A stretch of 59,686 nt of DNA from an uncultured Candidatus Peribacteria bacterium. Lineage in GTDB: Bacteria; Patescibacteriota; Gracilibacteria; Peribacterales; Peribacteraceae. How positions within the stretch are numbered: position 1 is the stretch's first letter; each line of letters begins with the position of its first letter. The notes under the pieces were generated by a model. It did no database searches and was not told the origin of the DNA. It saw only the letters and a list, made by a program, of their open reading frames with translations. Position numbers and translations under genes: made by a program. The DNA lies in assembly GCA_964563915.1 (NCBI GenBank), contig CAZLYW010000002.1:1-59686 (forward strand), read 5' to 3'. Positions 17,529-46,401 of the stretch are shown here, piece after piece.

Positions 17529-17531
17529 GTC

Positions 17532-17756: not shown

Positions 17757-17865
17757 GTGTCTATTGTACAGAAATAAGAGGTAAACGTACACTGGTTTCC
17801 TCCGAATTCGGGCAATTGTTCGCCTCAAGCGGATGGTTAGAGTCCCATGCGTCATTTACATTCTC

Positions 17866-17942
17866 GGGCAATTAGCTCAGCCGGTTAGAGCGTTCGATTC
17901 ACATTCGAAAGGTCACTGGTTCGAATCCAGTATTGCCCACCA
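17866..17942 (+). tRNA. tRNA-Val (anticodon CAC), CCA encoded
   Basis: Cloverleaf read by hand: acceptor GGGCAAT/ATTGCCC, D arm GCTC/GAGC, anticodon stem TTCGA/TCGAA with loop TTCACAT, T arm ACTGG-TTCGAAT-CCAGT, discriminator A, CCA. Confidence 0.95.
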
Positions 17943-18374: not shown

Positions 18375-19262
18375 TCATCGCGAACGTGTCGACCCAGAGC
18401 TCTTCGCACTGCGTGATGAGGTTTTCTGCTTCTTCACGGTTGAGCGGCCAGATGCGCCGATACTCTTGCGTTCCCGTTCCTGCGCTTTGCGTTCTGCTGT
18501 CTTCACTGTTTGCTCGGCACTCTTGGCGATGGCGTCGGCGGTCTTCAAGACTTCTTTCTGTGCGATGGTGAGAACCTGCTGGCTCTTCTCGAGCTGATCC
18601 AGGAGAGACGTGGTGTCCTCATCGAGGAGAGCTCCATCGATCGCCTCCGCAATGTTCTCCAGCAACGAGACGTACCGCTCTTGCGCGAGTTGGATGGTGT
18701 TCGATGGCGTCGTGCCGGGGATGCTGTCGCTGACTGGGCCGCTGAATTTCACATCACTGACTGCGAGGGAGAGATCGTCGCCCACAGCGTAGAGCTCCGT
18801 CCATGCATCGTCGACCTCTCCGTACTCATCCTCAATGTACCCGCGTTCATCGCCCGCGAGCGTCTCGCTGGAGGCTTGCACGGCAAGTTCGCGCATGCGT
18901 TTGAGGATGTTCGCTATCTCGTTCGCGGATGCATCCGCTGTCTGTATCAGCGAGATTGCGTCATTGGTATTCCTCATTGCCTGTCGGAGAGCACGAATCT
19001 CCGCATCCAGTGCCTGCGCAACGCCGAGACCAGCCGCATCATCTGCGGCTGTGTTGATTCGGAGTCCGTTCGAGATTCGCTCGAAGACGCTACTGAGCGC
19101 CTGCTGCGTCGCGTTCAATTTGTTCTGCGCGTTGATGGCCTGCGTGTTCGTGTTGACGACGAGCGCCGCGCGAAAAACCTGGAAGTGCACGGCGGCTCCG
19201 ATGAACGTCGTGAGGAGAGCACCGCTGATGATGAGGATGTGTTTGCGTGTGAGCGTAGGCAT
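18375..19262 (-). CDS. membrane-anchored flagellin N-terminal-domain protein (no flagellin C domain)
   Basis: Residues ~35-150 (NTNTQAINAQNKLNATQQALSSVFERISNGLRINTAADDAAGLGVAQALDAEIRALRQAMRNTNDAISLIQTADASANEIANILKRMRELAVQA) match the flagellin D0/D1 N-domain almost motif for motif. A TM helix (ILIISGALLTTFIGAAV) precedes this region. The C-terminus is helical and basic and lacks the flagellin C-terminal signature. Confidence 0.8.
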   Translation of the reverse strand: MPTLTRKHILIISGALLTTFIGAAVHFQVFRAALVVNTNTQAINAQNKLNATQQALSSVFERISNGLRINTAADDAAGLGVAQALDAEIRALRQAMRNTNDAISLIQTADASANEIANILKRMRELAVQASSETLAGDERGYIEDEYGEVDDAWTELYAVGDDLSLAVSDVKFSGPVSDSIPGTTPSNTIQLAQERYVSLLENIAEAIDGALLDEDTTSLLDQLEKSQQVLTIAQKEVLKTADAIAKSAEQTVKTAERKAQERERKSIGASGRSTVKKQKTSSRSAKSSGSTRSR

Positions 19263-24807: not shown

Positions 24808-26517
24808 TCAGTATACGGTCTTCAGATAGCATTCCTCGCAGTAGACGGTTTCGGGCCTCTCCGGCGCCCATGTCGTTCGGATCTCTTTGCGGCACTTGGC
24901 GCAGCTGCGCGTCCAGAATTTCCGGGGATTGCGTTGTGCGAACCGGTCGAAATGCCGCTGCTGCCATGATTTGCGAGGAGGCGGCAGTCCATGATCGCGA
25001 TAGAAGCGTAATTCTTGCGGGAGAATTTTGAAGGGACGTCCCGTCACTTCGCATTGGATGGCCCATTGGAGAATGTCATCGGGAACATCATTGCTGTTAT
25101 CGAGCAGGCGACTGCCCGGAATCACTTTGGTCGCTTTCGGCGGCGGAAGTTCGGTATCGTCCCACCGGATATTGCTTTTGACAGCGTCAGATTTCTTCAG
25201 CGGATAGTACTGCTGGGCAGTCGTCTTGTTATAGCCGAACGGGGAAATGCTCATCGGGAGAAATTCGCCCCACTCGCCGGTCTTCTTCATGTGCTCGGCA
25301 AGCTTCCCGGCGGTAACTTCGTATTCTTCCGGTGAATATTGCCTGTTCAAGATGCAGTGTTTCGCCCGGGAAATGTTAACGCAGCCGAAACAGTTCTTGC
25401 ACCGCTCGGCATACCAGCAATACGTGAGGTCCGAGGTCGTGTGGCCTCCGTAGCTGAAGAGGAGATGATAGCTGTTCTCTCCGACAATCGCAGACTCGTA
25501 GGACTGCTGCAAGTTGAGGCCATATTGATAGATGTCCTGCACGTCTTTGGCGCCGGTGACGACCTGGTAGAGGAATTTTCCCTGCTCGACGTTTTCACAA
25601 TCAAAGCTCGCATGGACGTTTTTGCAGTTATTCAAGTGGTCCCCCGAGCTGTTTTCGACGTTGTTCCCCTGAAAGAATTTAAAGTGATGTCTCGCTTCTA
25701 GATTTTTGCGCTCGGCTGCGCACTCGTTGCATTGGCGGTATGAACGGAGTGAATACTCTTTCATTTTTTTCTCATATTCGCCGCGTGTCATCTGCTGATT
25801 ATTGAAACAGTACTCTGCATTGCGAAGCCCCACGCAGAGGAAGCAATTCCTGCAGCCGATGCAATCCCGTAAAAATGCGGAATCGGAGCAGTTTGCGCAA
25901 TCCTGGCAGTGAACCAGCCCGTAGCACTTGAGCACGTCCACGCAGTCATAACATCGCTCGCAGTGCAGGTTGTAGAATCCGTCGATGCATGAGCGATTAT
26001 ATTTGAATCCGTATCCGTACATGCAGTCTTCGCAGAAGTCGGCGTGCATGATCAGGTAGCAGTTCTTCGAACTGCCAGCGAAGTGGATATATTCGGAGTT
26101 CACTAATTCCCCCTGCACGTCGAGTGCGAGCGACGGAACGGAACGCTTCAGCTCCGCGAGCTGCTCAAAGAACGGTCGCGAGAAATTGATCTCCCGTCCG
26201 TACGACAGAGCATCACACTTGTCGCTATGCCAACACTCGCGGCAGTAATAGGGAATTCCGCTGCCGGCTGGGAATTGTGTCAGCGTGCGTTTTGTACAGA
26301 GCCCGCACTGGCCGGGGTAGAGATTCTGCTCGTTGCATTGCGCCAGCCGTCTCTGTTGCCGGCAATCGGGACAGTGTGTCGGCGGCGGGATCAGATATTT
26401 CTTACCCGCGAAGACCGGCGATACACGGTCGTAGAAAGCGAGATCGTCCTGCGTGATCTCGAAGGATTGCTTGCACCAGGGGTTTGCGCAGATCTTCATG
26501 AGTGCTGATTCTATCAT
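24808..26517 (-). CDS. Cys-rich repeat protein with N- and C-terminal zinc-ribbon modules
   Basis: Dense CxxC arrays (CEDC, CERCYDCVDVLKC, CQDCANC, CIGCRNCFLC, CKNCFGC). The two terminal modules resemble each other (..FY(D/R)...P.P..C/R..R....RN....C..C...I.T......VYC.EC(W/Y)). Confidence 0.75.
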   Translation of the reverse strand: MIESALMKICANPWCKQSFEITQDDLAFYDRVSPVFAGKKYLIPPPTHCPDCRQQRRLAQCNEQNLYPGQCGLCTKRTLTQFPAGSGIPYYCRECWHSDKCDALSYGREINFSRPFFEQLAELKRSVPSLALDVQGELVNSEYIHFAGSSKNCYLIMHADFCEDCMYGYGFKYNRSCIDGFYNLHCERCYDCVDVLKCYGLVHCQDCANCSDSAFLRDCIGCRNCFLCVGLRNAEYCFNNQQMTRGEYEKKMKEYSLRSYRQCNECAAERKNLEARHHFKFFQGNNVENSSGDHLNNCKNVHASFDCENVEQGKFLYQVVTGAKDVQDIYQYGLNLQQSYESAIVGENSYHLLFSYGGHTTSDLTYCWYAERCKNCFGCVNISRAKHCILNRQYSPEEYEVTAGKLAEHMKKTGEWGEFLPMSISPFGYNKTTAQQYYPLKKSDAVKSNIRWDDTELPPPKATKVIPGSRLLDNSNDVPDDILQWAIQCEVTGRPFKILPQELRFYRDHGLPPPRKSWQQRHFDRFAQRNPRKFWTRSCAKCRKEIRTTWAPERPETVYCEECYLKTVY

Positions 26518-26539: not shown

Positions 26540-26980
26540 TCAGATATCGGCCTCAGGTGTCTCCAGCCACACTGCTAACGAGCGTGCGTATGCTTGGAGG
26601 TCTGCAATCCCAGTCTGGAGATGGACATAGAGGAGGTGCGGATCCACTTCCACGTACTCGTGTACGAGCACATTGCGAAACCCTTTAGCGCGGAGCAGAC
26701 GTTCACAAAGATCTTCCGCGATTACCGATCGTTCCGCGAGGACGATCAGCGCATCCCGCTCGTCTCGCAGCCTTCGCCAGTCTTGAATGAGGACGAGCAG
26801 ACGAGAGCAGTCGATGACCGATTCGATGGCAGTCTGCATAAGCCGTTCCACGGAGAATTTCTTCTCGGGATTCCCGATCAGTTCCTGTTCTGACAGCTGC
26901 CGATAGGGCGCCAGAAGATCCAGGTTCTTCTGCAGGTAACCGAGTTTACGGATGAGCGACTGGCGGTCGGCGGGCGTCAT
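26540..26980 (-). CDS. hepT: HEPN (DUF86) toxin HepT
   Basis: R-x4-H motif (RNVLVHEY) near the C-terminus, ~145 aa, and a 4-nt overlap with an upstream nucleotidyltransferase gene. Confidence 0.85.
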   Translation of the reverse strand: MTPADRQSLIRKLGYLQKNLDLLAPYRQLSEQELIGNPEKKFSVERLMQTAIESVIDCSRLLVLIQDWRRLRDERDALIVLAERSVIAEDLCERLLRAKGFRNVLVHEYVEVDPHLLYVHLQTGIADLQAYARSLAVWLETPEADI

Positions 26981-27432
26981 GCAGCGGGTCGTGAAAGAAT
27001 ACGGTTAATGGTGATGTCCGCTTCCCGTTGAAGATAGTAGCGTTCATCGTCGTACTCACGTTCGACCTGTAACTCGTATTCAATCTTCTCTTGCCGTGTG
27101 CGCCCAAAGAGCAAGATACCTTTGCGAACGACGTTGAATTGCAGTAGCACGGGAACGTCCTGCAGGATGATCAGGTCGATCTTCTCTAGATATTCATGAA
27201 GGGTGTCAGCGAGTGCACGCATCAGGCGGATCCGCAGCTTGAATCGTTCTCCTTTATCAAGTGACGGTGCGGCCAGAATGCCGATATCGATGTCGCTTTC
27301 TTGATCTGCTCTCCCGCATGCGCGTGTGCCATGGAGGTATGCGAGATGAACAACGTCGCCTTGCGCACGCTTATTTTCGCGCTGGATCACCGTTACAAGC
27401 GCAGCCGCAATCCGTTCAGAATCACTATCCAT
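26977..27432 (-). CDS. mntA: minimal nucleotidyltransferase antitoxin MntA
   Basis: HGTRACGRADQESDIDIGIL (G.R..G...SD.D motif of the pol-beta NTase fold), paired with HepT. Confidence 0.85.
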   Translation of the reverse strand: MDSDSERIAAALVTVIQRENKRAQGDVVHLAYLHGTRACGRADQESDIDIGILAAPSLDKGERFKLRIRLMRALADTLHEYLEKIDLIILQDVPVLLQFNVVRKGILLFGRTRQEKIEYELQVEREYDDERYYLQREADITINRILSRPAA

Positions 27433-27463: not shown

Positions 27464-28576
27464 TCAGTACACCTCTTTCAGATAGCACTCCTCGCAATAG
27501 ACGATCTCTGGCCGGTCGGGCCCGTATGTCGTCCGGATCTCCCTCCCGCACTGGCCGCACGATCGCGGGTAGAGTTTGATGCCCGACCGCCGAGCAATCC
27601 GTTCATCGTGTCGGACATCCGGATGTTTGCGCGGCAGAGGGAGATCCATTTGCCGGTAGAACGCGAGCTCCTGCTTGATGATGCGGAACAGGCGGCCGGT
27701 CGCAATGCAGGTGACCGCCCAGTCGGTTACATCGTCGGGAACGTCGGCAATCGACAGCGGGAGCTTCTCCGCGGGAATCACTTTCTTCACGTTCGGTTTC
27801 TCATCCGATGGCTCACGCCACGTATACCCGCGCTTCAACGCTTCAGACTTCGTTAACGGAAAGTACTCCATCGCAATCGTCTCGTTGAATGCGAACGGAC
27901 AGAAGTGCTTGGGGAAGTATTCGCCCCACTCTGATGTTTTGCGCATGTGGTCGATCAATCGGGAGCGCAATGTCTTGAACTCGCTCTCGGAGTACTGCTT
28001 GTTGAGGATGCAGAACTTCTTCTTACGCGCGCCAATGCATCCGAAGCAGTCACTACAACCCGTACAGTGAGCGCAATACTCCAGGTTGCTGTTCCCCGTC
28101 GTGCAGGTCGTGCAGAACTTCAGGTTGTACGCATTGTCTCCGCTGGAGGACGTCTGGTAGACCAGTTCCGCCTTGTCGCCCCAGGAGTTGTAATCCATGC
28201 AGGACTTCGCCGAGAAGACGCGCGCGCAGCGGACGCAGTCTTCCAGGTCTTTGCAGTCGTAGCAGTCGATCGAATCCTTGGAATCGTAGAGGTGGTTACC
28301 GGCGCTGTTCTGGTTGTGCTCGTTCTGGACGGGCTTGTGCGGCTGCGTCCGGAAGAAGTCATCAGCGCGCTTTCTCATCGCCTGCAACCCGTCATACGTA
28401 TTCAACTTCAATGCCGCTTTCTGCTTTTCATATTCCTCTTTCGTCAGTTGCTTGTTCAGAATCATGCGACTCTTCTGTCGTTGGTTGATGCAGCCGATGC
28501 AGTCGCGGCATCCAATGCAGTTGTCCAGAAAGACACTCTCGCTACAGGTCTGACATTCCTTGACAACAAGATGTTT
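27464..28576 (-). pseudogene. 5'-truncated paralog of the Cys-rich zinc-ribbon protein
   Basis: It aligns with the C-terminal ~370 aa of 24808-26517 (CIGCRDCIGC, CSDCFGC, identical VYCEECYLK end). Homology stops at ~28576. Upstream in frame there is no ATG/GTG/TTG, only translated antisense of a plus-strand ORF. The first in-frame ATG is at 28465. Confidence 0.6.
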
Positions 28577-28978
28577 AAATGTAAAATGAACACGATGAAT
28601 ACCAGCGCCTACGATGAAGAGCTCGGCAGACTCCAGAGTACGTACGACGAGGCTGTAGCGAAGCTTGAGGAGCTCGAAGCGTCTCTGCTCAAGGGAACGC
28701 TCTCCGCGGAGCAACAGTCTCTTGCCACTGAGTACTGGTTGACTATGGTGCAGTGCGACGGCAGCGCCCGGCAGCACTATGCTCATGCGCTGAGATACGG
28801 GAATCTGACGTTCGAAGAGCGCTACGGAGGAACACATCAGCAGATTGAATTTGCATTGCAGGACTACAAGCTGCAATTGGCGGAAGCGGTGGATGACGAT
28901 GACGGCGGAGACGTCACGGAAGCGGGGACGGGATATTTCACTGATGCCGGACAGGCGGATGATTTGCCGGATAAATGA
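28571..28978 (+). CDS. hypothetical acidic coiled-coil protein
   Basis: The 3' third of ORF 27947-28978 reads as a plausible protein (SAYDEELGRLQSTYDEAVAKLEELEASLL...DDDDGGDV). Candidate ATGs are at 28571, 28586 and 28595. The ORF ends 25 nt before the RluA-type gene. Confidence 0.45.
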   Translation: MFKCKMNTMNTSAYDEELGRLQSTYDEAVAKLEELEASLLKGTLSAEQQSLATEYWLTMVQCDGSARQHYAHALRYGNLTFEERYGGTHQQIEFALQDYKLQLAEAVDDDDGGDVTEAGTGYFTDAGQADDLPDK

Positions 28979-29003
28979 GTAACCGGGACTGTAGACTCTC
29001 CGC

Positions 29004-29666
29004 ATGTCCATCTCTCGCGACCGTATCCTCTACTGTGACGACACGATCCTCGCCGTGAGTAAGCTGGCGGGGGAATTAGTTGTAAAGGGTTTCGGGAACG
29101 TGCAGAAGCTGCCGCTCCTCGATTTCCTCAGGAAGGAGTATCCTGGCATTCACCCCCTCAATCGTCTGGACTTCGAGACATCGGGGGTCGTCCTCTTCGC
29201 GCGCAACAAGAAGATTCTCGCGGAAGTCCTCGCGTCAAAATTCAAAGGCTGGAAGAAGATCTACCGGACGATCGTCGCGGGGAGAATCAAGCAGGATCGC
29301 GGCGAGATCACCATGCCGTTGCCTGCGAGAGTAAAAAAGGAAGGCAACGTCACCGCAATGACTCGCTACAAGGTTCTCCAGCGGTTCGAGAATTCTACGT
29401 ATGTAGAAGTAGAGATCGAGACCGGCCGGCACCACCAGATCCGCCGGCACTTCGCGATGATGTACCATCCACTGATCCTCGATCAGATCTATGGGGATGA
29501 GAAGGTCAATCGCAAGTTCTCGAAGCAGCTCGGGTACCGCCGGTTCTTCCTGCATGCGTGGAAAGTTCAGCTTCCCCATCCGGTGAGCGGCAAAGAGGTG
29601 ATCATCGAAGCGCCGATGCCGAAGGCATTCATCAATGTATTGAAGGAGTTGGGCATTGGGGATTAG
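29004..29666 (+). CDS. RluA-family pseudouridine synthase
   Basis: NRLDFETSGVVLFA (catalytic Asp motif), ...YRTIV.G..., TGR.HQIRRHF. Confidence 0.9.
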   Translation: MSISRDRILYCDDTILAVSKLAGELVVKGFGNVQKLPLLDFLRKEYPGIHPLNRLDFETSGVVLFARNKKILAEVLASKFKGWKKIYRTIVAGRIKQDRGEITMPLPARVKKEGNVTAMTRYKVLQRFENSTYVEVEIETGRHHQIRRHFAMMYHPLILDQIYGDEKVNRKFSKQLGYRRFFLHAWKVQLPHPVSGKEVIIEAPMPKAFINVLKELGIGD

Positions 29667-32944: not shown

Positions 32945-33859
32945 TTACGTCAATCCCGGCACGTGCTTTCGAACGATGTCCACAACGGTTTCCAGATTGT
33001 CATTCACCAAAATCTTATCGAACAAATCCGCCCGTTCGCGGAAGAATTCGAGATCGCGCGCGGCGTTCTTCAGCCGGTCCTTGATGTGTTCCTCCGCATC
33101 GCGGCCGCGGAGTCGGAGGCGGTGGAGGAGGGCACTGAGCATCGCACGCTTGCTGTTGCCGGGCGGCAGGAGACCGAAACTGAGGATCGATCGTCGTCCG
33201 TAGTGCTCGGCGATGCCGCGCAGCAGGTGCATCTCGGTAATGACGACGGGGAGCTTGCCCTTTTCCCAGAGCTTCTCGATATCAGCCTTCCGGTACCCGT
33301 ACCAGCGTTCTTCGGTGGACGAGGGGAGATGCGCGAACGCGATCATCTCGCCGTTCTCCACGTATTCAGTGAATTTCTCTGTGCTCACGTACCGGTACTC
33401 GCCGTCATCACCGCTCTTCCGATCGCGCGTCGTCAGGATTGGCACGGATTCGACGTGACTGCTGAACATGTTCACGAGGAGCCGGCTCACGGTGGTCTTC
33501 CCCACGCCTGAGGGGCCGGTGAGCGCGAGGATGTAGCCGGGAAAGATTTTCTTCTTCTCGGGTTTCGCCGGTACCGCCGTCACAATCTCGTAGGCGACGT
33601 CGTAGATGCGGAGTCCATCATCACTGACAGAAGAGAGGACCATGCGCGGGCGGACTCCCTGCCCGACCGCAGGATGCGCTCCGAGGATCTGCCCGAGCGA
33701 ACGTGTACCGTCCTCCAGTTCGATCAGGCCCACCGTTCGCGGACGGTTGTCGAAGCCTTCGAGGGGGTGAGTCATAGTGGTCCAGGAGAGGACGGTGCCC
33801 TCTTGCAGCTTCCTGCGGCGTTTGGCATTCTGGCGGTGGAGGATGGGGGGGGTGGTCAT
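32945..33859 (-). CDS. fusion protein: DUF35-type OB-fold (acyl-CoA-associated) N-domain plus guanylate-kinase-like P-loop domain
   Basis: The N-terminus (GTVLSWTTMTHPLEGFDNRPRTVGLIELEDGTRSLGQIL......GQGVRPRMV) follows the DUF35 OB-fold pattern. The C-terminus (LTGPSGVGKTTV...ILTTRDRKSGDDGEYRYVS.EKF......GEM...........YGY) follows the guanylate kinase pattern. No Zn-ribbon Cys pairs are present. Confidence 0.7.
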   Translation of the reverse strand: MTTPPILHRQNAKRRRKLQEGTVLSWTTMTHPLEGFDNRPRTVGLIELEDGTRSLGQILGAHPAVGQGVRPRMVLSSVSDDGLRIYDVAYEIVTAVPAKPEKKKIFPGYILALTGPSGVGKTTVSRLLVNMFSSHVESVPILTTRDRKSGDDGEYRYVSTEKFTEYVENGEMIAFAHLPSSTEERWYGYRKADIEKLWEKGKLPVVITEMHLLRGIAEHYGRRSILSFGLLPPGNSKRAMLSALLHRLRLRGRDAEEHIKDRLKNAARDLEFFRERADLFDKILVNDNLETVVDIVRKHVPGLT

Positions 33860-33892
33860 CGGGCTCGGGAACGGGCTCGGGTTCGGAAGAGA

Positions 33893-35017
33893 TTAAGAAA
33901 CATGTTCAAGGATGTGGACGCCGCAGGTGGCAGCCGCTCCGCCGAAGTTATGAGCGAGTCCAAAACGATTTCCGCTCTTCTCCATTTGCTTCGCAACATC
34001 GATGACTTGTTTGATGCCCGTGGCGCCGACGGGATGGCCGCAACCTTTGAGGCCGCCGCTCATATTCACGCCGAGCCCGGTTGGTTTCCCATCGAACAGA
34101 TTCCTGTAGACATGAATGCCTTGCCCGGGATCGCAGAAGCCGAGATCTTCAAGATTGATCAATGCCGCGATGGAGAAGCAGTCGTGCGTCTCGAGCACGT
34201 TCACGTCGTTCAACTTGATCTCCGCTTCGGTCAGAGCGCGCTCCGCGGCGTCTTTGGTCGCCGAGAACGAGGTGATGACTGGTCGGTGGAGGATGCTCAG
34301 GCTATCGCTCGCAATCTGCGATGCGGCAATCCGAACGCCGCTCACGTGTTCGCTCGAGAGAATGCACGCCGCGGCGCCGTCGCTGATCGGCGAGCAGTCG
34401 AGCAGCCGCAGGGGGTCGCTGATCATCGCGCTCTTCGTGACGGTTTCCGGGTTGATTTCCTGCCGGAATTGCGCGAAGGGGTTCCGGCAGGCATTGCGGT
34501 GATGCACCGCGCTGACCAGGCTCAAATCCTCTCTACTGAGGCCGAAGTCGTGCATGTAGCGCTGCGCGATCAGGCCGAAGATGCCGGGGAAGGTGAGGCC
34601 GGCCGGCCGCTCCTCCTCGCTATCCGCAGCCCCCATCAGCGCTGATGCTACCGTGTCCACCGATACATCCGTCATCTTCTCGACGCCGATCACGAGGACG
34701 TTCCTCGCTCTGCCACTTTCGAGCATCGCGCAGGCCGTATGAAGCGCAAACGCTCCCGAGCCGCAGGCGGACTCCACTCTCAATGCGGGAGGATGATGCG
34801 GAAGCAGAGAGGAAGCGATCGCCGCCAGGTGCGCCTGGCCGTTCGTCACCTCTGCGAGCATGTTACTGACGATGATCATGTCGATATCGAGGGCAGTGCA
34901 CGGAGAGGAGGAGATGGCGGCGTCGGTAGCTTCTTCCATCAGGTCGCGGATGCTTTTGTCCCAGAGCTCGCCGAAGCGAGTTTGGCCGTGGCCGATGAGG
35001 TGGACAACGGAGTTCAC
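33893..35017 (-). CDS. archaeal-type (SCP-x-like) acetyl-CoA C-acetyltransferase (thiolase)
   Basis: GHGQTRFGE, VESACGSGAFALHTA (active-site Cys), C-terminal NMSGGLKGCGHPVGATG. GTG start. Confidence 0.9.
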   Translation of the reverse strand: MNSVVHLIGHGQTRFGELWDKSIRDLMEEATDAAISSSPCTALDIDMIIVSNMLAEVTNGQAHLAAIASSLLPHHPPALRVESACGSGAFALHTACAMLESGRARNVLVIGVEKMTDVSVDTVASALMGAADSEEERPAGLTFPGIFGLIAQRYMHDFGLSREDLSLVSAVHHRNACRNPFAQFRQEINPETVTKSAMISDPLRLLDCSPISDGAAACILSSEHVSGVRIAASQIASDSLSILHRPVITSFSATKDAAERALTEAEIKLNDVNVLETHDCFSIAALINLEDLGFCDPGQGIHVYRNLFDGKPTGLGVNMSGGLKGCGHPVGATGIKQVIDVAKQMEKSGNRFGLAHNFGGAAATCGVHILEHVS

Positions 35018-35021
35018 GGGC

Positions 35022-35057
35022 GAAAAATTGAAAATTGAAAATGGAAAATTGAAAATG
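35022..35057. repeat. GAAAATT/GAAAATGG word run in the HMGS/thiolase spacer
   Basis: GAAAAATTGAAAATTGAAAATGGAAAATTGAAAATG. The same words occur at 38767-38817 and 40566-40591. Confidence 0.8.
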
Positions 35058-35064
35058 CTGGACT

Positions 35065-36090
35065 TCAGATGGCATGGGAGTGTTCAAGATATTCATCGTA
35101 CGTCAGATATTCAGGCTGTCTGTCATCGCGGGGGAGCTCAACTCCGTCTTTCATCATGGTCATCAGGAAGGCGTCGGAGCCCGATCCGGATCCATAGGAA
35201 ACAAGGAAGATCGTGTCACTCTTCTTTGCCTGCTCGAGAACGTACGTGAGCCCGAGAGGGGAGCAGGCGGCATAGGTGTTGCCGATGGCGGGGACGATGA
35301 AGCCGAGGTCAAGTTGTTCCTCTGTGAAGCCGAGTTTTTTCGCGACAACCTTGGGGAACTTCGCATTCGGCATGTGGAACACAACGTGATCGATGTCCGC
35401 CGGTTTCTTCTTCGCGATCGCGAGAATTCCCTTCGTCACTTCCTGCACGTGACGGAAATACGCGGGCTCGCCGGTGAAGCGTCCCGCATGGTGCGGGTAC
35501 TCTTCGCCGTTCGGGCGCCAGAAGTCCGGGGTATCCGTCGTGAACGAGAGCGTGTGCTCGATGCGGCACAGCGCCTTAGACGCCTTCTCCGACCCGATGA
35601 TCACCGCCGCCGCGCCCGCCGCCGCTGTGTATTCAAGTGCATCTCCTGGGCGGCCTTGCGCGGTGTCCGTCCCAATCGCCATTCCGTAACTCACTTGTCC
35701 GGATCGAACCATACTATCGACAATCTGCATCCCCGCCGTTCCCGCTTTGCACGCGAATTCCAGATCGGCGCAGTGGCAGAACGGATGGAGGTCGAGTGAT
35801 GACGCGAGCATCGAGCTCGTCGGCTTCACTGCGTACGGGTGGCTCTCGGAGCCGACGAAGATTGCGCTAATCTCCGATGACTGAATCTCAGCGACCTCAA
35901 TCGCCTGTCGGGCAGCCTCAAAGGCCATCGTGTAACTATCCTCCTCTCGTCCGGGCACGGTCTTCTCGCTAATCCCGAGGCCGCTGACGATGCCTTTGGG
36001 GTCTTGCCCGTGATGCTCGGCGATCGCGGCAGTTTTGACACGGTATTTCGGTAGGTATCTGCCAAAACCGATGATGGCGGAGTGAGACAT
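35065..36090 (-). CDS. hydroxymethylglutaryl-CoA synthase (short archaeal type)
   Basis: ~341 aa; IGFGRYLPKYRV, EDSYTMAFEAA, VGSESHPYAVKPT, active-site-region GTDTAQG, and a GSGSGSDAF end. ATG at 36090 inside ORF 35065-36165. Confidence 0.9.
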   Translation of the reverse strand: MSHSAIIGFGRYLPKYRVKTAAIAEHHGQDPKGIVSGLGISEKTVPGREEDSYTMAFEAARQAIEVAEIQSSEISAIFVGSESHPYAVKPTSSMLASSLDLHPFCHCADLEFACKAGTAGMQIVDSMVRSGQVSYGMAIGTDTAQGRPGDALEYTAAAGAAAVIIGSEKASKALCRIEHTLSFTTDTPDFWRPNGEEYPHHAGRFTGEPAYFRHVQEVTKGILAIAKKKPADIDHVVFHMPNAKFPKVVAKKLGFTEEQLDLGFIVPAIGNTYAACSPLGLTYVLEQAKKSDTIFLVSYGSGSGSDAFLMTMMKDGVELPRDDRQPEYLTYDEYLEHSHAI

Positions 36091-36165
36091 CCGGTGGAGT
36101 ATAGCATGGATATTTTTTGTATTCGCAGCGGTTGACCTCATTGCGAATTCTGATACCGTGCGCAC

Positions 36166-36258
36166 GGAGGGTGCTCAAGGGGCATTCTTGTGCTTCTTGA
36201 GCATCCTCCACCTACGACGCAGGCCAGGGCGAAAGCCTTGAGACCTGCGTCGTTTTTT
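36166..36258 (+). terminator. two-hairpin module ending in a plus-strand intrinsic terminator (candidate small antisense RNA 3' end)
   Basis: GGAGGGTGCTCAAG (36166-79) pairs with CTTGAGCATCCTCC (36196-209), 13/14. Then ACGACGCAGG (36214-23) pairs with CCTGCGTCGT (36244-53) perfectly and is followed by TTTTT, on the plus strand only. All neighbouring genes are on the minus strand. Confidence 0.45.
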
Positions 36259-37417
36259 ATCGCGCGAGCTGACGATGGGCTTCTGCGAGACGGTGAGCAG
36301 CCTGCGCCGCGAGCAGCGAGATCTCTCCGGCAAGGACAGCCGCCCCGATACTCTCAGCCAGTTGTGCTTTCGGGTGAAGTGACGTCGTGTCGCCCATCAG
36401 CATCTTCAAGCATTGCGATTGCGCAGGTAGGGTTGTGCCGCCGCCGCGGAGGCCGACCAAGAGCGCGGGACATCGGACGGACACCTTCAATTGTTGATTG
36501 GTTAATTGGTTAATTTGTGTGTCACTAAGAGAACCTTCCACGACATGCGCCGCATCCTGTCCGGTTGCCAAATACAGCGCAGCAATGATGTTGGCGGTGT
36601 GGAGGTTTGATCCAATCGCGCCGGCAATTTGCGAACCGTGTTTGAGTTTGGCTTCAGCGACGGCCATCATGGCTTCCGGCGTACTCTTCAGAACATCACG
36701 GATGATCTCCGGCATCAGTGTTGCTTCGGCGGTGACTTCGTACCCGCGGCCGCACGTGTGAACACGTGCGCTGGGTTTTTTGTCTGAATCGACGTTTCCC
36801 GCGACGGTGATGAATTCCAATCCCTCAATGTTCTTCTCCATCCATTCGCCGACGGCCTGCGCGGCAATCGTCACCATGTTCATGCCCATCGCTTCGTCGG
36901 TGTCGCAATAAATCGTTAAGAAGAGGAAATGCTCTGTCGTGTCTACTTCATAGCGAAGTACTTTCAAGTGATTGCTGGTCGATTCAGCCATCGCAATCCA
37001 TTGTTCTCTCTTCTCTTCCGTGTTGCGGGTTGCGAGTTTCGGGTTGCGGGACTTGAAAGCAATTGAGCGGCTGATGCCATGATGGATCGACGTCGTCTTC
37101 ACTCCGCCGGATGCGGTCAGAGCCTTGCATCCTCTATTCACGCTCGCCACGAGCGCGCCTTCTGTCGTCGCAAGAGGGAGATGAATCTCCTGTGTCTCTC
37201 CGGAACTGAATATCACCTTCAGAGGTCCGGCGTAGCCAACGGGAATCGGGACGTGGCCGAGCATTTGCTCGCAATTCTTCTCGTCAGCATGGCCGATGTA
37301 ACCATCTGCGGGTGTCAAACGCGAGAGGTCAATGCTCAGCTCTTTCTCCACGCGTGAGCGGCGCTCAGAGCAGCGTTGTTCGGGAGTGAGGCCGCTGGGG
37401 AGCGTTCGAATATCCAT
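36257..37417 (-). CDS. class I hydroxymethylglutaryl-CoA reductase
   Basis: EQMLGHVPIPVGYAGPL, LATTEGALVASVNRGCKA, DAMGMNMV, GQDAAHVVE, GGGT.LP.Q motifs; ~386 aa soluble form. Confidence 0.9.
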   Translation of the reverse strand: MDIRTLPSGLTPEQRCSERRSRVEKELSIDLSRLTPADGYIGHADEKNCEQMLGHVPIPVGYAGPLKVIFSSGETQEIHLPLATTEGALVASVNRGCKALTASGGVKTTSIHHGISRSIAFKSRNPKLATRNTEEKREQWIAMAESTSNHLKVLRYEVDTTEHFLFLTIYCDTDEAMGMNMVTIAAQAVGEWMEKNIEGLEFITVAGNVDSDKKPSARVHTCGRGYEVTAEATLMPEIIRDVLKSTPEAMMAVAEAKLKHGSQIAGAIGSNLHTANIIAALYLATGQDAAHVVEGSLSDTQINQLTNQQLKVSVRCPALLVGLRGGGTTLPAQSQCLKMLMGDTTSLHPKAQLAESIGAAVLAGEISLLAAQAAHRLAEAHRQLAR

Positions 37418-37590
37418 TAAAAATTCTGATGTCGATTCGTTTTCTTCCTCCGCTCATTTTTAATTTTTTCAAGTAGTTTGATAACCTCAGCGGCAGGAAC
37501 CCCTCTCCTCTTACCGCCATTAGTAAAATCCACTACAGTTTCCCAGCCGTCTTCGACTCCGTCGAGAATAGCGATATTGTTGGTCCGCAT
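37417..37590 (-). CDS. hypothetical 57-aa protein in an AT-rich insert, coupled to HMGR
   Basis: Its TAA overlaps the HMGR ATG by 1 nt (TAATG). Basic C-terminus. A second 35-codon mini-ORF lies at 37627-37734. Confidence 0.35.
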   Translation of the reverse strand: MRTNNIAILDGVEDGWETVVDFTNGGKRRGVPAAEVIKLLEKIKNERRKKTNRHQNF

Positions 37591-37754
37591 AAATAAACAA
37601 CTCAAAGAAAAATTTTTACATCAAGTTCACTCCTTTCCGATATGTGTCACTTTGCATTCTAAACCTTCAGCGATGAGTCCTACCCGAAGGTTCGTTTCTG
37701 CGATATCGTCGCCAAGAACAATGATTTGCCTCATGGTCAAATCCTATACCAATT

Positions 37755-38765
37755 TTATCTGGTTTCAAGGAGTCTGGCACCCGATCCCGTCTTCGCCTCA
37801 AAAATCCTGCACCCTTTCTGCGAATGCGCGAGTTCCCGCACCGCGGTTGCCGCTTCCTCCGGACAGATCAAGTGTACCGTCGGGCCGGCGTCCATCGTGT
37901 AGAGAACCGGAAGGCGATCGGTTGTTCTCACTGTCGTGATCTCCCGGATGATCCGGTGAGTCGCGTCGTTCAGATAGTTGAGCGACGGCGTACTCGTCTC
38001 CATCACGTGATGCATATCGAGGGAATCTTCCTCGGCGACACGCTGGAGCTTCTCAAAATCTTTGTAGAGGATCGCATCGGCGCATTCCTTCTGCCGCCGC
38101 GGCATCTGCTCCAGGCGCTTCTTGTACTGCGGACTCGTCCACGCGAGCGCATGACCTTCCGTCGATCCGACTTTCTTTTCCTCCTGCGTGGGGACGACGA
38201 TGATGTCGTACAGCAGCCAATGATTCTCGTCAGCGATCTGGACGCCGTAGGAGGAATCCATTGCGTCGCCCGATCCTGCGAGCAGCGCGCCGTACCCGCC
38301 GGAGATGCTCCGCGCAGCGGAACCGGAGCCGAAGCGCGCGATCACGCTGATCTGTGCATCATTCAACGCGATGGCGTCCTTGATCAACTCTGCATACGCT
38401 TTCGCGATGCAGGCGAAGACGGCGGCGGACGAGGCCAATCCAATGGAGGAGGGGATATGGGAACGCACGGTGATCGTTACGGAAGCAGGGATGGCATTCG
38501 CGGCGCCGAGCTTGGTCAAATACTGCTTCGTCAGATCCAGATGGCGGTCGAAGCGTGCGACATCCCTCTCCTTCATTTGTTTTTCGGCATCGTCAGCGTC
38601 GAATGATCGAACGGACATCGTATCGGTATGATCGACGGTGATCTCCACGTGCGGCGTATCGAGTGTCATCGAGAGGGAATCCGCGGCGGGGAGGCGGAGA
38701 TCGTTGTTTCTATTGCCCCAATACTTAACAAAGGCAATGTTCGGCGTTGAAATCGCTTTTGTCAT
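37755..38765 (-). CDS. mvaD: (di)phosphomevalonate decarboxylase (GHMP family)
   Basis: NIAFVKYWGNRNNDLRLPAADSLSMTLD and GLASSAA are MDD signatures. ATG at 38765 inside ORF 37755-39020. Confidence 0.85.
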   Translation of the reverse strand: MTKAISTPNIAFVKYWGNRNNDLRLPAADSLSMTLDTPHVEITVDHTDTMSVRSFDADDAEKQMKERDVARFDRHLDLTKQYLTKLGAANAIPASVTITVRSHIPSSIGLASSAAVFACIAKAYAELIKDAIALNDAQISVIARFGSGSAARSISGGYGALLAGSGDAMDSSYGVQIADENHWLLYDIIVVPTQEEKKVGSTEGHALAWTSPQYKKRLEQMPRRQKECADAILYKDFEKLQRVAEEDSLDMHHVMETSTPSLNYLNDATHRIIREITTVRTTDRLPVLYTMDAGPTVHLICPEEAATAVRELAHSQKGCRIFEAKTGSGARLLETR

Positions 38766-38766
38766 G

Positions 38767-38817
38767 AATGGAAAATGGTAAGCATGATTTTCAATTTTCC
38801 ATTTACCATTTTCCATT
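38767..38817. repeat. perfect 15-bp-stem AT-rich hairpin between the GHMP kinase and MDD genes
   Basis: AATGGAAAATGGTAA (38767-81) pairs with TTACCATTTTCCATT (38803-17). The loop contains the TTTTCAATTTTCC word. Confidence 0.85.
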
Positions 38818-38821
38818 TTTC

Positions 38822-39625
38822 TCAAGTAAATGCCAACACCATCCCCCCACCCACTGTCCGCGCCCCTGCCCCAAGCACTTTCGCCGCTCCGCCCCTCTTC
38901 TCGATGTCCGCGATCAGCTTCTGCACCGGTTCGGGAACCACGCCGAGTGCGACCTGGGCGCGATGATGATCGCGAATGACCGCCATCGGATCTTCGCCGG
39001 CGAGGAGGCGTTCCGTGCATTGGCCGATTGTTTCGAATGCAGCAATCACGTTTTTGTCACCCTGAGCGAAGCGAAGGGTCATCCACGCGACGAGTTCCGC
39101 CGTGCTTTCACTTGGTTTTCCCGCATCGATGAGCGTGCTGTTCTTCAGGAAGTCCAAATTCAGAGAGACCGGCTCAGGCGTCGATCCCTTTTTGAACATC
39201 ACCGGACGATTGGCCCAGATGACCGCGAAGTCGAGGCCGCTGTTGCCGGGATTGATCAGATCTTCCACGAGGACCGCCTGCGTACGGTTTTCCGGTCCCA
39301 GCAGTACGCGGCAGATTGCAATCACAAGTCCGGTCGAGGAGCCCATGCCGCGGCCGACGGGAATCTGATTCTTGATCGTGAGCGTTCCCGTTGAACTCGC
39401 TGGTCGAAGACCCGCGCTGGATTGAATGCAGAGATCAATAATCTTCCGTGCGTATGATTCTTCACCGGCCAGTCCTTCGAGAATGATCTTCATCGGCGCG
39501 TCGCCGCTCTCTTCCCACATCGCCTCCACGCCGACCGTCGTCGGTACCGCGATGCCGGGATAGCCGAATACTACGGCGTATTCGCCGGAGAGGATCATTT
39601 TGCTGGGGGCGAAGGTTCTCATCAT
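38822..39625 (-). CDS. GHMP-family kinase (mevalonate kinase or phosphomevalonate kinase)
   Basis: APSKMILSGEYAVVFGYPGIAVP and PVGRGMGSSTGL (GHMP motif); short at 267 aa. It carries GEY, where mevalonate kinases usually have GEH. Confidence 0.8.
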   Translation of the reverse strand: MMRTFAPSKMILSGEYAVVFGYPGIAVPTTVGVEAMWEESGDAPMKIILEGLAGEESYARKIIDLCIQSSAGLRPASSTGTLTIKNQIPVGRGMGSSTGLVIAICRVLLGPENRTQAVLVEDLINPGNSGLDFAVIWANRPVMFKKGSTPEPVSLNLDFLKNSTLIDAGKPSESTAELVAWMTLRFAQGDKNVIAAFETIGQCTERLLAGEDPMAVIRDHHRAQVALGVVPEPVQKLIADIEKRGGAAKVLGAGARTVGGGMVLAFT

Positions 39626-39915
39626 GGTACAATGCTCCCATGGTCGTCACTGGGCCGCAACCATTGGATGAAGCGTTTTACCAACAAGTGCTTCTCGATT
39701 ACGGGCCAGAATTCGTAGAGATAGCACGACTTGTTGAAAAGGAACTCATTGATAGTCAGCGGCGGTACGGCACGTTCAACATCATCGCAATAACAAAGCA
39801 GCGTGTGACCGATCTGTCCGATTTCGATGAAGTGAATGCGTTGCCATTCGGGTTGAATTGCGAAGTTGATTGAATATTCAGCTTCCGAATCGTCTCGTCC
39901 TTTTCTCAAAATCAT
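39622..39915 (-). CDS. hypothetical small protein between uppS and the GHMP kinase
   Basis: ATGA overlap with the downstream kinase start. C-ending codon bias like the neighbouring genes. It overlaps the uppS 3' end by ~38 nt. No homology recognised. Confidence 0.35.
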   Translation of the reverse strand: MILRKGRDDSEAEYSINFAIQPEWQRIHFIEIGQIGHTLLCYCDDVERAVPPLTINEFLFNKSCYLYEFWPVIEKHLLVKRFIQWLRPSDDHGSIVP

Positions 39916-40558
39916 CGACCGCCTTCTCAACATCCTTCGCCGTGAGATCCGGAAAGAGTTTGTCCAAAAACACCCACTCCGCGTACGTACTTTCCCATAG
40001 GAAGAAGTTGCTGGTCCGTTGCTCCCCTGATGTCCGGAGAACCAAGTCGATGTCGGGGAGTTCGGGATGATCGAGCAGCTGCTGGAAGGAATCTTCGGTG
40101 ACGCTCTTCGGATCCTCGATCTTCTGCATCGCGCGGATCAGTTCGTCTTTTCCGCCGTAGTCGACCGCGAGGTTGAGTGTGAATTCCGTCTGATCCTTCG
40201 TGTCCTCTTCCGCTTCCCTGATGAGCGCCGCGAGTGACGCGGGAATCCGGTCGAAGCGGCCGGAGTGGAGGAAGCGGGTCTTCTTCTCGAGAAAGGCCTT
40301 CCGTTCCTTACGCAAATAGTCTTCGTAGATTGTCATCAGCATGGCGATTTCCTTTTGGTCGCGCTTCCAGTTCTCTGTCGAGAAGCACCAGACGGTGAGG
40401 ATTCCGATGCGCGGATCATTCCTGCACCACTCGGTGATCGAACGGAAGTTCTCGATAGCGGTTTCGTGGCCTTTCCAGGGCTGGAGGGCGCGTGCTTTGG
40501 CCCAGCGGCGGTTTCCGTCCGGAATGATCGCGAGATGGATGGGAGAAGTCGAAGGCAT
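39878..40558 (-). CDS. uppS: undecaprenyl diphosphate synthase (cis-prenyltransferase)
   Basis: HLAIIPDGNRRWA, TVWCFSTENWKR, LRTSGEQRTSNFFLW. Confidence 0.95.
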   Translation of the reverse strand: MPSTSPIHLAIIPDGNRRWAKARALQPWKGHETAIENFRSITEWCRNDPRIGILTVWCFSTENWKRDQKEIAMLMTIYEDYLRKERKAFLEKKTRFLHSGRFDRIPASLAALIREAEEDTKDQTEFTLNLAVDYGGKDELIRAMQKIEDPKSVTEDSFQQLLDHPELPDIDLVLRTSGEQRTSNFFLWESTYAEWVFLDKLFPDLTAKDVEKAVDDFEKRTRRFGS

Positions 40559-40565
40559 GCTGACG

Positions 40566-40591
40566 GAATTGAAAATTGAAAATTGAGAATT
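40566..40591. repeat. GAAAATT word run in the idi/uppS spacer
   Basis: GAATTGAAAATTGAAAATTGAGAATT; same word family as 35022-35057. Confidence 0.75.
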
Positions 40592-41105
40592 ACGTCAAAA
40601 GTTTTTGCAATCCGATGTGAAACCACGGAGCATACAGATCGGGATGTTCCTTCATATCCTTCCGAAGATCGTTCACGTTCATCCACTTCCACTCCGCCAC
40701 TTCACCGAGTTCCGCCGTTACCGTCACGTCGTCGACGTCGCCGCGGAACATCGTCACATGCTCGTGCTCGACGCCTTTTCCCTCCGGGTCCTCCGCCTGA
40801 TAGACGAATTCTCCGACTGGCCTCATCGCGCAAGTGAACCCGAGTTCTTCCCGCAGCCGCCGGGGAGCGACGTCGGTGATCTCTTCGCCTTCCCGCGGGT
40901 GGCTGCAGCACGAGTTCGCCCAGAGGCCGGCGAAGAGCTTGCCGGCGCTTCGTTTCTGAATCAGCATTTCCGTTCCGTCATTGCGGAACACGTAGACGGA
41001 GAAAGCCCGGTGCAGCTTTCCCGATGGCAGCGCGTGCGCATCCTCCCACGAGATGGTCCCGAGAGAGGCATTGCGTTCATCGACGAGGATGAGGGGAGAG
41101 GCCAT
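40590..41105 (-). CDS. idi: type 1 isopentenyl-diphosphate delta-isomerase (Nudix)
   Basis: HRAFSVYVF, GLWANSCCSHP, A..RRLREELG. ATG at 41105 inside ORF 40590-41303. Confidence 0.9.
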   Translation of the reverse strand: MASPLILVDERNASLGTISWEDAHALPSGKLHRAFSVYVFRNDGTEMLIQKRSAGKLFAGLWANSCCSHPREGEEITDVAPRRLREELGFTCAMRPVGEFVYQAEDPEGKGVEHEHVTMFRGDVDDVTVTAELGEVAEWKWMNVNDLRKDMKEHPDLYAPWFHIGLQKLLT

Positions 41106-41637
41106 GCTTTTGGAGTTCCAGCATAGCGGTGGGAACCTGCTTGGCGAAGGGGATGGACGCCGGGATGACGATTGTGGCTGCAGCTTTGTACAGAGGATCG
41201 CGCGTATCGAGCATGCTCTGCACTTTTTCACGATGCAGTCCCTCAGCGAATTCGGGACGGGACACCTTGGCGCGTGCAAGGTGTTTCTTGATTCTCTTCG
41301 CACCTGCCTGCAGCCAGATCACGATGGCACGCCCCTCCAGTGCTTTGCGCACGGCGAAGGATTCGATGGCACCTCCGCTCAGCGTGACGACGTGGCCGGG
41401 ACGAAACGCAGAGAGGGCGATCTGCTCTTCCCTCCGGCGGAAATTCTCTCACCCATGCCGCGTAATGTATGCGTAGTGATCGCCGTGGCGTTCTTCGAAT
41501 ACCCGGTCGGTGTCCACCCGCTTCCACTCGAGCTTGGACGCCAGCCGCTTGCCGAAGACGGTCTTCCCCGCGCCGTTCGTGCCGATGACCGCGATGCAGC
41601 GGGTGCCGATAGTCTTGCTGAGAGAGGAATGCTCCAT
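41077..41637 (-). pseudogene. shikimate-kinase-family P-loop kinase interrupted by one in-frame TGA (codon 63)
   Basis: One continuous frame reads MEHS..IAVIGTNGAGKTVFGKRLA...VDTDRVFEERHG....ITRHG-TGA(41451-41449)-ENFRRREEQIAL...VTLSGGAIES...IVIWLQA....RPEF....RDPLYKAAA. The start overlaps the mgtE stop (TGATG) and the end overlaps the idi start. Confidence 0.7.
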
Positions 41638-46326: not shown

Positions 46327-46401
46327 GCGGGTGTCGTATAGTGGTCATTATGTCAGCCTTCCAAGCTGAAGATGGCGGTTCGATTCCGCTCACCCGCTCC
46401 A
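46327..46401 (+). tRNA. tRNA-Gly (anticodon UCC), CCA encoded
   Basis: Acceptor GCGGGTG/CACCCGC, anticodon stem TCAGC/GCTGA with loop CTTCCAA, T arm GGCGG-TTCGATT-CCGCT, discriminator T, CCA. The D stem has one mismatch. Confidence 0.9.

Follow-up and report, generated by a model that had tools for sequence, protein, structure and literature searches.

A guanylate kinase-like domain as a candidate for the second kinase of an archaeal-type mevalonate operon in a Peribacteria bacterium

How does a bacterium complete a two-kinase pathway when its operon for that pathway encodes only one kinase of a recognizable type? The question is raised by a mevalonate operon on the minus strand of a 59,686-nt stretch of DNA (hereafter the window) from an uncultured Candidatus Peribacteria bacterium (assembly GCA_964563915.1, contig CAZLYW010000002.1). 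Judged by profile searches, the operon encodes a single mevalonate kinase (MVK)-like protein and a single decarboxylase of the mevalonate diphosphate decarboxylase (MDD) family, together with a thiolase, HMG-CoA synthase (HMGS) and DUF35-type OB-fold protein, HMG-CoA reductase (HMGR), isopentenyl-diphosphate isomerase (Idi) and the cis-prenyltransferase UppS. The explanation that we favor, at a probability of roughly 0.4, is that the decarboxylase would act on mevalonate 5-phosphate (MVA-5-P) to give isopentenyl phosphate (IP), and that IP would then be phosphorylated by a guanylate kinase (GK)-like domain fused to the DUF35-type OB domain.

The host is a member of the Peribacteraceae (Peregrinibacteria), within the candidate phyla radiation (CPR). 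Gene order in the window matches that in the complete Ca. Peribacter riflensis genome: dusB, clpC, rpsA and HIT lie on one side, and P. riflensis genes 635-643 match the operon (idi, uppS, MVK, MVD, HMGR, HMGS, thiolase and a 312-aa “gmk”). Archaeal-type mevalonate operons in CPR bacteria are already known (PMC4736985, PMC6107057). The Peribacteria pathway was called “near-complete” in 2016 by Anantharaman et al. (PMC4736985), with enzymes given for the formation of MVA-5-P and for the conversion of mevalonate 5-diphosphate (MVA-5-PP), and none for the step between. Hoshino and Gaucher (2018; PMC6107057) reported the archaeal-type thiolase, and the synteny with a cis-prenyltransferase, across CPR generally, with the pathway complete for CPR as a whole. 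The P. riflensis operon has the same gene order, archaeal-type thiolase and HMGS, and cis-prenyltransferase synteny as the window, which differs from the published CPR operon in having an additional, interrupted gene of the shikimate kinase family. Both papers leave the substrate-specificity residues of the decarboxylase, discussed below, unaddressed. In the CPR mevalonate literature and supplement that we searched, the fusion appears only as one K00942 “gmk” row of the 2016 supplement, without comment, and our search for literature on alternative isopentenyl phosphate kinase (IPK) or phosphomevalonate kinase (PMK) enzymes in CPR found nothing relevant.

Is a second kinase of a familiar kind really absent? 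An earlier sequence-only reading of the locus had described a lone GHMP kinase with no canonical partner, and this description is borne out in the window, in seven related operons and in the P. riflensis annotation. A scan of the operon proteins and of ten other large open reading frames (ORFs) of the window revealed no second GHMP kinase. The same reading had noted the absence of an IPK of the amino acid kinase (AAK) fold; there is none among the scanned window proteins, and the sole AAK-fold gene recognized in the window is proB, identified by synteny with the related locus L007 rather than by the scan. In eight related operon loci, no AAK-fold gene other than proB or pyrH lies within 10 kb on either side, and seven related Peribacteria loci, taken with 10-kb flanks, each have one GHMP kinase and at most one decarboxylase. 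Looking beyond the operon for PMK, IPK or methylerythritol phosphate (MEP) pathway genes, as the earlier reading had recommended, was possible in the genome of a relative: the published annotation for the complete genome of P. riflensis contains no PMK (“diphosphomevalonate decarboxylase” is the sole phosphomevalonate-type term), no K06981 (IPK), no deoxy-xylulose (MEP) terms, and no galactokinase or “GHMP” entries. It does have a canonical gmk (gene 213, 200 aa, K00942 157.7 bits), separate from the fusion (103.7 bits). The animal PMK family PF04275 matches neither of the two P-loop proteins of the operon, the fusion and the shikimate kinase-like protein, at E < 0.01. Rfam and tRNA scans of the window, and promoter and terminator scans of the operon, returned nothing bearing on the kinase question.

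What does the one GHMP kinase do? The protein (38822-39625, minus strand) is short, at 267 aa, and aligns end to end with the MVK model TIGR00549, scoring 80 bits against a cut-off of 163. Its PDB matches in a single-sequence search are all mevalonate kinases. A profile made from eight orthologs has MVK structures as its first 11 matches (top 2x7i, 87.6 bits) and reaches 3k17, which we take to be a PMK-like chain, at E = 0.02; all eight orthologs match MVK models. The PMK models TIGR01220 and NF040957 do not match the window kinase at E <= 0.01. PMK-model matches are marginal in some orthologs (best E 4e-6), and in locus L093, from a distant member of the Peregrinibacteria, the match spans the N-terminal motif alone. 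The sequence-only reading had called the kinase PMK-like from its GEY motif. The motif is present (SGEYAVVFG), and GEY or GEF is kept in the orthologs, with GEY in most, but the profiles place the kinase with the MVKs. For comparison, a canonical MVK encoded in L093 scores 215 bits and has a GEH motif. Hence, we describe the short GHMP kinase as MVK-like by profile and propose that it is a mevalonate 5-kinase.

Where in the pathway would the gap then lie? The decarboxylase (37755-38765, minus strand; alternative start 38816) belongs to the MDD family, whose members include phosphomevalonate decarboxylases (PMDs) and diphosphomevalonate decarboxylases (DMDs), and it carries PMD signatures. Its best PDB match, at 186.6 bits, is 6n0x, the Anaerolinea thermophila PMD and the one solved structure of a PMD (PMC9254496); true DMDs reach at most 124.6 bits. 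Specificity positions were inferred from a comparison of the deposited 6n0x and 6n0z and from Table 4 of Dellas et al. 2013 (PMC3857490), in which all DMDs have Lys21. In the window decarboxylase, the segment KYWGNRNNDLR places Asn at the position of Staphylococcus epidermidis K21 and Arg at the position of I27 (Y+9), and Arg at the latter is the PMD state (PMC3857490). At the two positions where the engineered 6n0z variant differs from wild-type PMD (N to K and H to M), the window protein has N and H, and the DMDs of A. thaliana and S. solfataricus have K and M in the same alignment. The window motif is GSTEGH, with His as against the Met of the DMD motif S(S/T)xxGM. The catalytic Asp is retained in YTMDAGP, and the PMD-type residues are conserved among orthologs (Asn and Arg in five of them). 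The S139 position is Ser (ARFGSGSAARS), not the Ala of the Roseiflexus/Chloroflexi type; Ser at this position is common to the A. thermophila PMD and haloarchaeal PMDs.

Family models are less informative for this protein. The window decarboxylase scores 118 bits against the NCBIfam MvaD equivalog (cut-off 475), which must be a narrow model because the clear PMD of L093 (212 bits) also fails it. The window decarboxylase passes the DMD model TIGR01240 (187.5 bits; cut-off 171), a point in favor of a DMD; the clear PMD of L093 passes as well (241.6 bits), so this model does not discriminate between PMD and DMD. From its residues, the decarboxylase is more likely a PMD. The sequence-only reading had framed the gap as a missing PMK; with a PMD-like decarboxylase, the gap would more likely fall between IP and isopentenyl diphosphate (IPP) than between MVA-5-P and MVA-5-PP. 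We consider it probable that the route runs from MVK through PMD to IP, with IP kinase as the absent enzyme. Such a route would resemble the MVK-PMD-IPK pathway of haloarchaea and Chloroflexi (PMC3857490), with which the window shares an MVK-like kinase and the PMD-type specificity residues. That pathway has an AAK-fold IPK; none was found in the window operon, where a GK-like P-loop domain is the proposed substitute.

What, then, is the GK-like domain? The last gene of the operon (32945-33859, minus strand) encodes a 304-aa fusion of a DUF35-type OB domain (PF01796) and a GK-like P-loop kinase domain (PF00625). The kinase domain comprises residues ~105-304 (32948-33547, minus strand; PF00625 over residues 112-298, 58.7 bits, cut-off 25.2). 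An AlphaFold 2 model of the fusion (pLDDT 84.7) has an N-terminal helix and an OB beta-barrel (residues 5-92), a linker and a GK fold. In Foldseek searches with this model, the best superpositions of the GK fold are with guanylate kinases in the closed, GMP-bound state (1gky: TM 0.85, rmsd 2.6, 24% identity). Against the gmk equivalog TIGR03263 (cut-off 160.45), the window fusion scores 88.1 bits and its relatives score 48-79; there are also weak PhnN matches of 24-35 bits.

Residues were compared by means of an alignment to yeast Guk1 and alignments of 24 and 46 fusions, taking the roles of the Guk1 residues from the 1GKY literature. Across the 46 fusions, the ATP-binding P-loop GPSGVGK(T/S)T is invariant, as are the LID arginines R247, R251 and R262 and the phosphate-binding residues R145 (yeast R38), Y155 (Y50) and Y187 (Y78); the position of yeast R41 is K or R, so that a basic residue is retained. 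All four guanine contacts are replaced: S34 by Ile (I141), E69 by Ala or Ser (never Glu), S80 by Tyr (Y189), and D100 by Glu (E209). Three additional basic residues, R185, R222 and R238, are invariant, and the family has two insertions of its own, P-S-x-x-E-x-R before WYGY and six residues after LLPPG. This is the pattern that would be expected of an active phosphotransferase that binds a phosphate-bearing acceptor and has lost guanine recognition. The domain differs from an ordinary gmk, because its guanine contacts are replaced and because P. riflensis has a separate canonical gmk. The sequence-only reading had suggested it as a non-orthologous replacement kinase; that suggestion is credible.

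There are precedents for such a change of substrate and for such a replacement. PhnN, a ribose 1,5-bisphosphate phosphokinase, is a member of the GK family that converts a non-nucleotide phosphate monoester to a diphosphate. The guanylate kinase family, PhnN included, shares its fold, P-loop, LID arginines and phosphate-binding Arg and Tyr residues with the GK-like domain, which differs in the replaced guanine contacts, in its two insertions and in scores far below the gmk and PhnN cut-offs. P-loop kinases have also displaced GHMP or AAK kinases in mevalonate pathways, as with the animal PMK (PF04275) and the Thermoplasma mevalonate-3-phosphate 5-kinase. The GK-like domain has no detectable sequence relation to the animal PMK and belongs to a different P-loop kinase subfamily.

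The partner domain may indicate where the kinase works. The DUF35-type OB-fold domain covers residues 1-~95 (33575-33859, minus strand; PF01796 over residues 20-72, 40.4 bits, cut-off 27.1). In archaea, thiolase, HMGS and DUF35 form a channeling complex. The sequence-only reading recognized the same trio here, and the window indeed has the same three adjacent genes and a DUF35-type OB fold; the four-Cys zinc ribbon is missing, as there is no Cys in residues 1-100, and PDB matches to the OB domain are weak and confined to the OB half of DUF35 chains. Unlike the archaeal scaffold, the DUF35 part of the window protein lacks the zinc ribbon and is extended at the C-terminus by a 200-aa kinase domain. 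The fusion gene adjoins the thiolase and HMGS genes in the window and in all nine related loci (the contig of one, L010, starts inside the thiolase gene and does not extend to HMGS). It is always the last gene, after HMGS and thiolase, and in L006 these three genes are the only ones clustered.

How widespread is the fusion? OB and GK domains are fused in at least 120 protein clusters at 53-85% identity, and those with names are nearly all from Peregrinibacteria or Peribacteraceae. An exhaustive search of cluster representatives at E <= 1e-30 gave 19 clusters, some of fused proteins (~300 aa) and some of standalone proteins (194-224 aa), and the standalone GK-like members carry the subfamily signatures. 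A P-loop pattern scan of a genome collection for relatives of the fusion returned mostly ordinary gmk and at least three further Peribacteria loci. The fused member in L093 has an instructive setting. On the opposite strand, between the short GHMP kinase and HMGR genes (L093 4260-6208), two genes are inserted as a cassette, one for a canonical MVK (215 bits, cut-off 163) and one for a Chloroflexi-like PMD (300 bits to 6n0x). The cassette replaces the Peribacteria-type decarboxylase; the two decarboxylases are just 28% identical. No AAK gene was found in L093 within 10 kb on either side. This arrangement fits a GK-like domain that would supply the IP kinase step. Because the short GHMP kinase coexists with a canonical MVK in this locus, it cannot simply be equated with the MVK in all cases.

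Standalone relatives occur in a different context. In L091 and L096, from two other lineages, a standalone GK-like gene directly follows uppS and a small His_Phos_1 phosphatase gene. The three standalone clusters (L091 8615-10642, L096 4193-6187 and L092 1844-3929) have a conserved order, (phosphoglycerate mutase)-uppS-small His_Phos_1 phosphatase-GK-like gene, with uppS missing from L092. Their neighbors include WecG, UDP-GlcNAc 2-epimerase and Wzy-like genes but no mevalonate genes, and they may serve isoprenoid-phosphate salvage or another lipid-carrier function. A further standalone member (L089/L090 10001-10675), 55% identical to the window domain, is found in Candidatus Kentron, a gammaproteobacterial ciliate symbiont. 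It is annotated as a guanylate kinase, lies between type II secretion genes and purH, and looks like a horizontal transfer from a CPR-like donor.

What pathway would these parts make? In the explanation that we favor, the short GHMP kinase would convert mevalonate to MVA-5-P and the PMD would convert MVA-5-P to IP. The GK-like domain on its DUF35 scaffold would then convert IP to IPP in place of the usual AAK-fold IPK. It would move the gamma-phosphate of ATP onto the phosphate of a non-nucleotide monoester, with the same chemistry as in the conversion of GMP to GDP and in the PhnN reaction. Through the fusion, this kinase would be anchored to the putative thiolase/HMGS complex, and the operon as a whole would make IPP and dimethylallyl diphosphate (DMAPP), feeding UppS. 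The proposal that the GK-like domain and its standalone relatives are a hitherto unrecognized, non-homologous isopentenyl phosphate (or phosphomevalonate) kinase is tentative and stands at a little under even odds. If it holds, Peribacteria would use a new enzyme to complete the phosphorylations of the mevalonate pathway, tethered to the thiolase/HMGS complex with which the pathway begins.

Several observations weigh against this explanation. L093 has three kinases for a two-kinase pathway, which leaves the short GHMP kinase, or else the GK-like domain, with some other role there. Near the standalone GK-like genes of L091 and L092, guaA lies four to five genes 3', which keeps a nucleotide kinase alive as an interpretation, and the standalone copy in the Ca. 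Kentron locus L089 has no isoprenoid context. The P-S-x-x-E-x-R insertion might, in principle, restore a guanine site. The window covers a single 60-kb contig, and a kinase may be encoded elsewhere in the same genome. Finally, P. riflensis gene 544 (437 aa) has a sub-threshold match of 76.9 bits to argB (acetylglutamate kinase, of the AAK fold). Genes syntenic to 544, in the order enolase ... DHH phosphoesterase-IF2, are found at L094 12420-13892 and L095 13261-14850 (490-529 aa), and these have no AAK signal in Pfam or NCBIfam and no detectable family. The case for gene 544 as a conserved IPK is weakened, since the signal is not conserved, a judgment made from the genes of two relatives.

What else could explain the gap? 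The GK-like domain may have no step in the pathway, being instead a nucleotide-binding, regulatory or interaction module or a second, divergent GMP kinase, while the required kinase is an unrecognized protein elsewhere or a promiscuous housekeeping enzyme. After a Ser to Pro change near the GMP site, GK folds have come to serve as non-catalytic binding modules (4f4j and 9jae are among the matches), and the fusion has VPI at that spot; the two GHMP kinases that accompany the fusion in L093, the guaA genes near the standalone forms and the AAK-like signal of P. riflensis gene 544 can all be read in the same way. Known non-catalytic GK domains have lost the P-loop, however, and in the 46 fusions the P-loop, the LID arginines and the four phosphate-binding positions (R41 as K or R) are kept. 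Moreover, P. riflensis is annotated with a canonical gmk but without an IPK or PMK, and the genes at the 544 position in two relatives lack an AAK signal, so that we regard this explanation as unlikely. If the domain does have a step, it might be that of a PMK, converting MVA-5-P to MVA-5-PP ahead of a classical DMD, which would make it a bacterial analog of the animal P-loop PMK, as the sequence-only reading proposed. The residue and context evidence for the GK-like domain applies to this alternative too, the invariant R185, R222 and R238 could bind a carboxylate, and the decarboxylase both passes the DMD equivalog TIGR01240 and, in contrast to PMDs of the Roseiflexus type, retains Ser at S139. 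But TIGR01240 accepts the clear PMD of L093 too, the decarboxylase has PMD-type Asn, Arg and His and lacks the Lys21 of DMDs, the fusion stands in L093 alongside a decarboxylase whose score to a validated PMD is 300 bits, and there is no match to PF04275. A PMK function for the domain is improbable on this evidence.

Two alternatives assign the step to another protein of the operon. A single short GHMP kinase could perform both phosphorylations, acting on mevalonate and then on MVA-5-P or IP. It is an atypical family, short, with GEY rather than GEH and a score well below the MVK cut-off, and its coexistence with a canonical MVK in L093 suggests a role beyond that of a plain MVK. We know of no bifunctional GHMP enzyme of the MVK/PMK or MVK/IPK kind, however; the profile similarity is to MVKs only, and a universally conserved GK-like domain with intact catalytic residues would be left unexplained. 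This is less probable again than a PMK function for the GK-like domain. Least probable, to the point of being barely worth entertaining, is that the replacement kinase is the shikimate kinase (SK)-like protein, which the sequence-only reading had put forward beside the GK-like domain. In the window, L007 and L008, its gene (window 41077-41637, minus strand; PF01202 100.6 bits) heads the operon and is translationally coupled to idi. It matches NF040667, an NCBIfam homoserine kinase model of the SK fold, at 66.9 bits, and SK folds have been recruited to other hydroxy-acid substrates. The P. riflensis annotation has no shikimate kinase or dehydroquinate entry, its shikimate pathway being partial. 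Against this, the DxD, FRxxE, GG and RP motifs, which we take to be those of the shikimate site, are invariant in the SK-like alignment, the window copy is interrupted by a stop codon, and the gene is confined to about ten closely related clusters and lacking in most of the Peribacteria that show this kinase gap. It shares the mgtE-SK-idi position in L007 and L008 and is missing from L001, L003/L004, L005, L009, L011 and L093, whose sets of kinases are the same or similar.

The SK-like protein otherwise resembles AroK. Its scores against the NCBIfam models AroL (86.7 bits, cut-off 161) and AroK (74.9 bits, cut-off 195) are low, and a mixed profile, built from the SK-like alignment including three canonical AroK sequences, matches E. 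coli AroK (1kag) at 171.6 bits. Close intact homologs form ten protein clusters at 59-67% identity, all of them in near relatives; after these, the best matches are to ordinary AroK proteins, at 35-40% identity. The gene is a lineage-restricted addition of an ordinary-looking aroK type, outside the core pathway, and a poor candidate for the second kinase. Conserved shikimate-binding residues are among the grounds that the sequence-only reading had itself named for giving the candidate up. That reading had listed this ORF as a P-loop kinase; it contains an in-frame TGA at 41449-41451 on the minus strand (ITRHG*ENFRRRE). The codon is Trp (TGG) in eight of eight aligned intact orthologs (57-67% identity), so the interruption is a single TGG to TGA change, which could reflect a recent nonsense mutation and a pseudogene, a strain variant or a sequencing error. 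Read-through of UGA as Trp is conceivable. Genetic codes 25 and 4 were considered and rejected: mgtE ends in TGA one base before the SK-like start, no other operon gene is interrupted by an in-frame TGA, and the orthologous codon is Trp, not Gly.

The remaining genes of the operon are conventional. From the ORF listing and profile searches, the operon lies 3' of proB-proC-proA-mgtE and has nine genes, eight of them intact. Besides those already described, all on the minus strand, they are idi, a type 1 (Nudix) isomerase (40590-41105; NF002995 137.5 bits, cut-off 127; TIGR02150 108.2, cut-off 105.8); uppS (39878-40558; PF01255 227 bits; TIGR00055 206 bits, cut-off 109.6); a class I, NADPH-type HMGR (36257-37417; PF00368 319 bits; TIGR00533 293; the class II model just 35.9); an archaeal-type HMGS (35065-36165; NF003274 436.7 bits, cut-off 244; TIGR00748 401.5, cut-off 353); and an archaeal-type (SCP-x-like) acetoacetyl-CoA thiolase (33893-35017; NF004720 383.9 bits; NF053570, AcCoTHIOL_METTL, acetyl-CoA acetyltransferase, 344.6). 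The true HMGS start is probably the ATG at 36090, because homologs align from HMGS residue 21-26 onward. The sequence-only reading had named the right set of enzymes (idi, uppS, GHMP kinase, decarboxylase, HMGR, HMGS, thiolase and DUF35), all confirmed by the profile searches, and had overstated both the number of genes and their overlap. It counted eleven genes, where we find nine, and a 103-aa ORF at 39622-39933 is spurious, with no Pfam match and no tblastn match (E <= 1e-5) in eight related loci. It also described the genes as mostly overlapping; there are two overlaps, of 1 nt between the mgtE stop and the SK-like start and of 29 nt between the SK-like end and idi, and the other neighbors are separated by gaps, in operon order, of 31, 252, 5-56, 337, at least 91, 47 and 33 nt. 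Two of these gaps, 37418-37754 (337 nt) and 39626-39877 (252 nt), are long for an operon that is compact elsewhere. HMGR-HMGS-thiolase-fusion may have a separate transcript as well, as weak promoter-like matches at 37780-37741 (minus strand) suggest; this would agree with L006, where just HMGS, thiolase and the fusion cluster.

Several features elsewhere in the window deserve mention. Two paralogous large proteins of 569 and 515 aa are encoded on the minus strand at 24808-26517 and 27464-29011; both end in the Cys motif PE(T/I)VYCEECYLK(T/E)VY, with a weak treble-clef zinc-finger match, and they flank a HepT/MNT-like toxin-antitoxin pair (26540-27432). Genes resembling type IV secretion coupling proteins, with TraG/VirD4/TrwB domains, lie at 4198-6984 (plus strand) and 22517-24673 (minus strand), and a protein with a flagellin N-terminal domain is encoded at 18375-19262; machinery of these kinds, for surface or transfer functions, is unusual in a small CPR genome. 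Translations read by eye point to a HicA/HicB-like pair at 17295-17855, beside tRNA-Val (17866-17942), and to a PIN-domain (VapC-like) gene near the left end at 2264-2671. A tRNA-Gly gene is found at 46327-46401.

What would a GK-fold kinase in the mevalonate pathway mean? Enzymes have been exchanged repeatedly in the lower part of this pathway: PMK exists in GHMP and P-loop forms, PMD is paired with IPK in another variant, and there are further routes in Thermoplasma and, by way of a dehydratase, in archaea. Were isopentenyl phosphate or phosphomevalonate the substrate of a GK-fold kinase, this would add one more solution reached independently, and such an enzyme would be useful for engineered isopentenol-utilization pathways. 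It would also close a gap in the Peribacteria pathway that has stood since the first complete genomes of the group in 2016, and it would bear on how the ancestral pathway is inferred from the mevalonate genes of CPR bacteria. Finally, the occurrence of the GK-like subfamily beside uppS, with no mevalonate genes in the flanks examined, hints at isoprenoid-phosphate salvage in symbiotic CPR bacteria.

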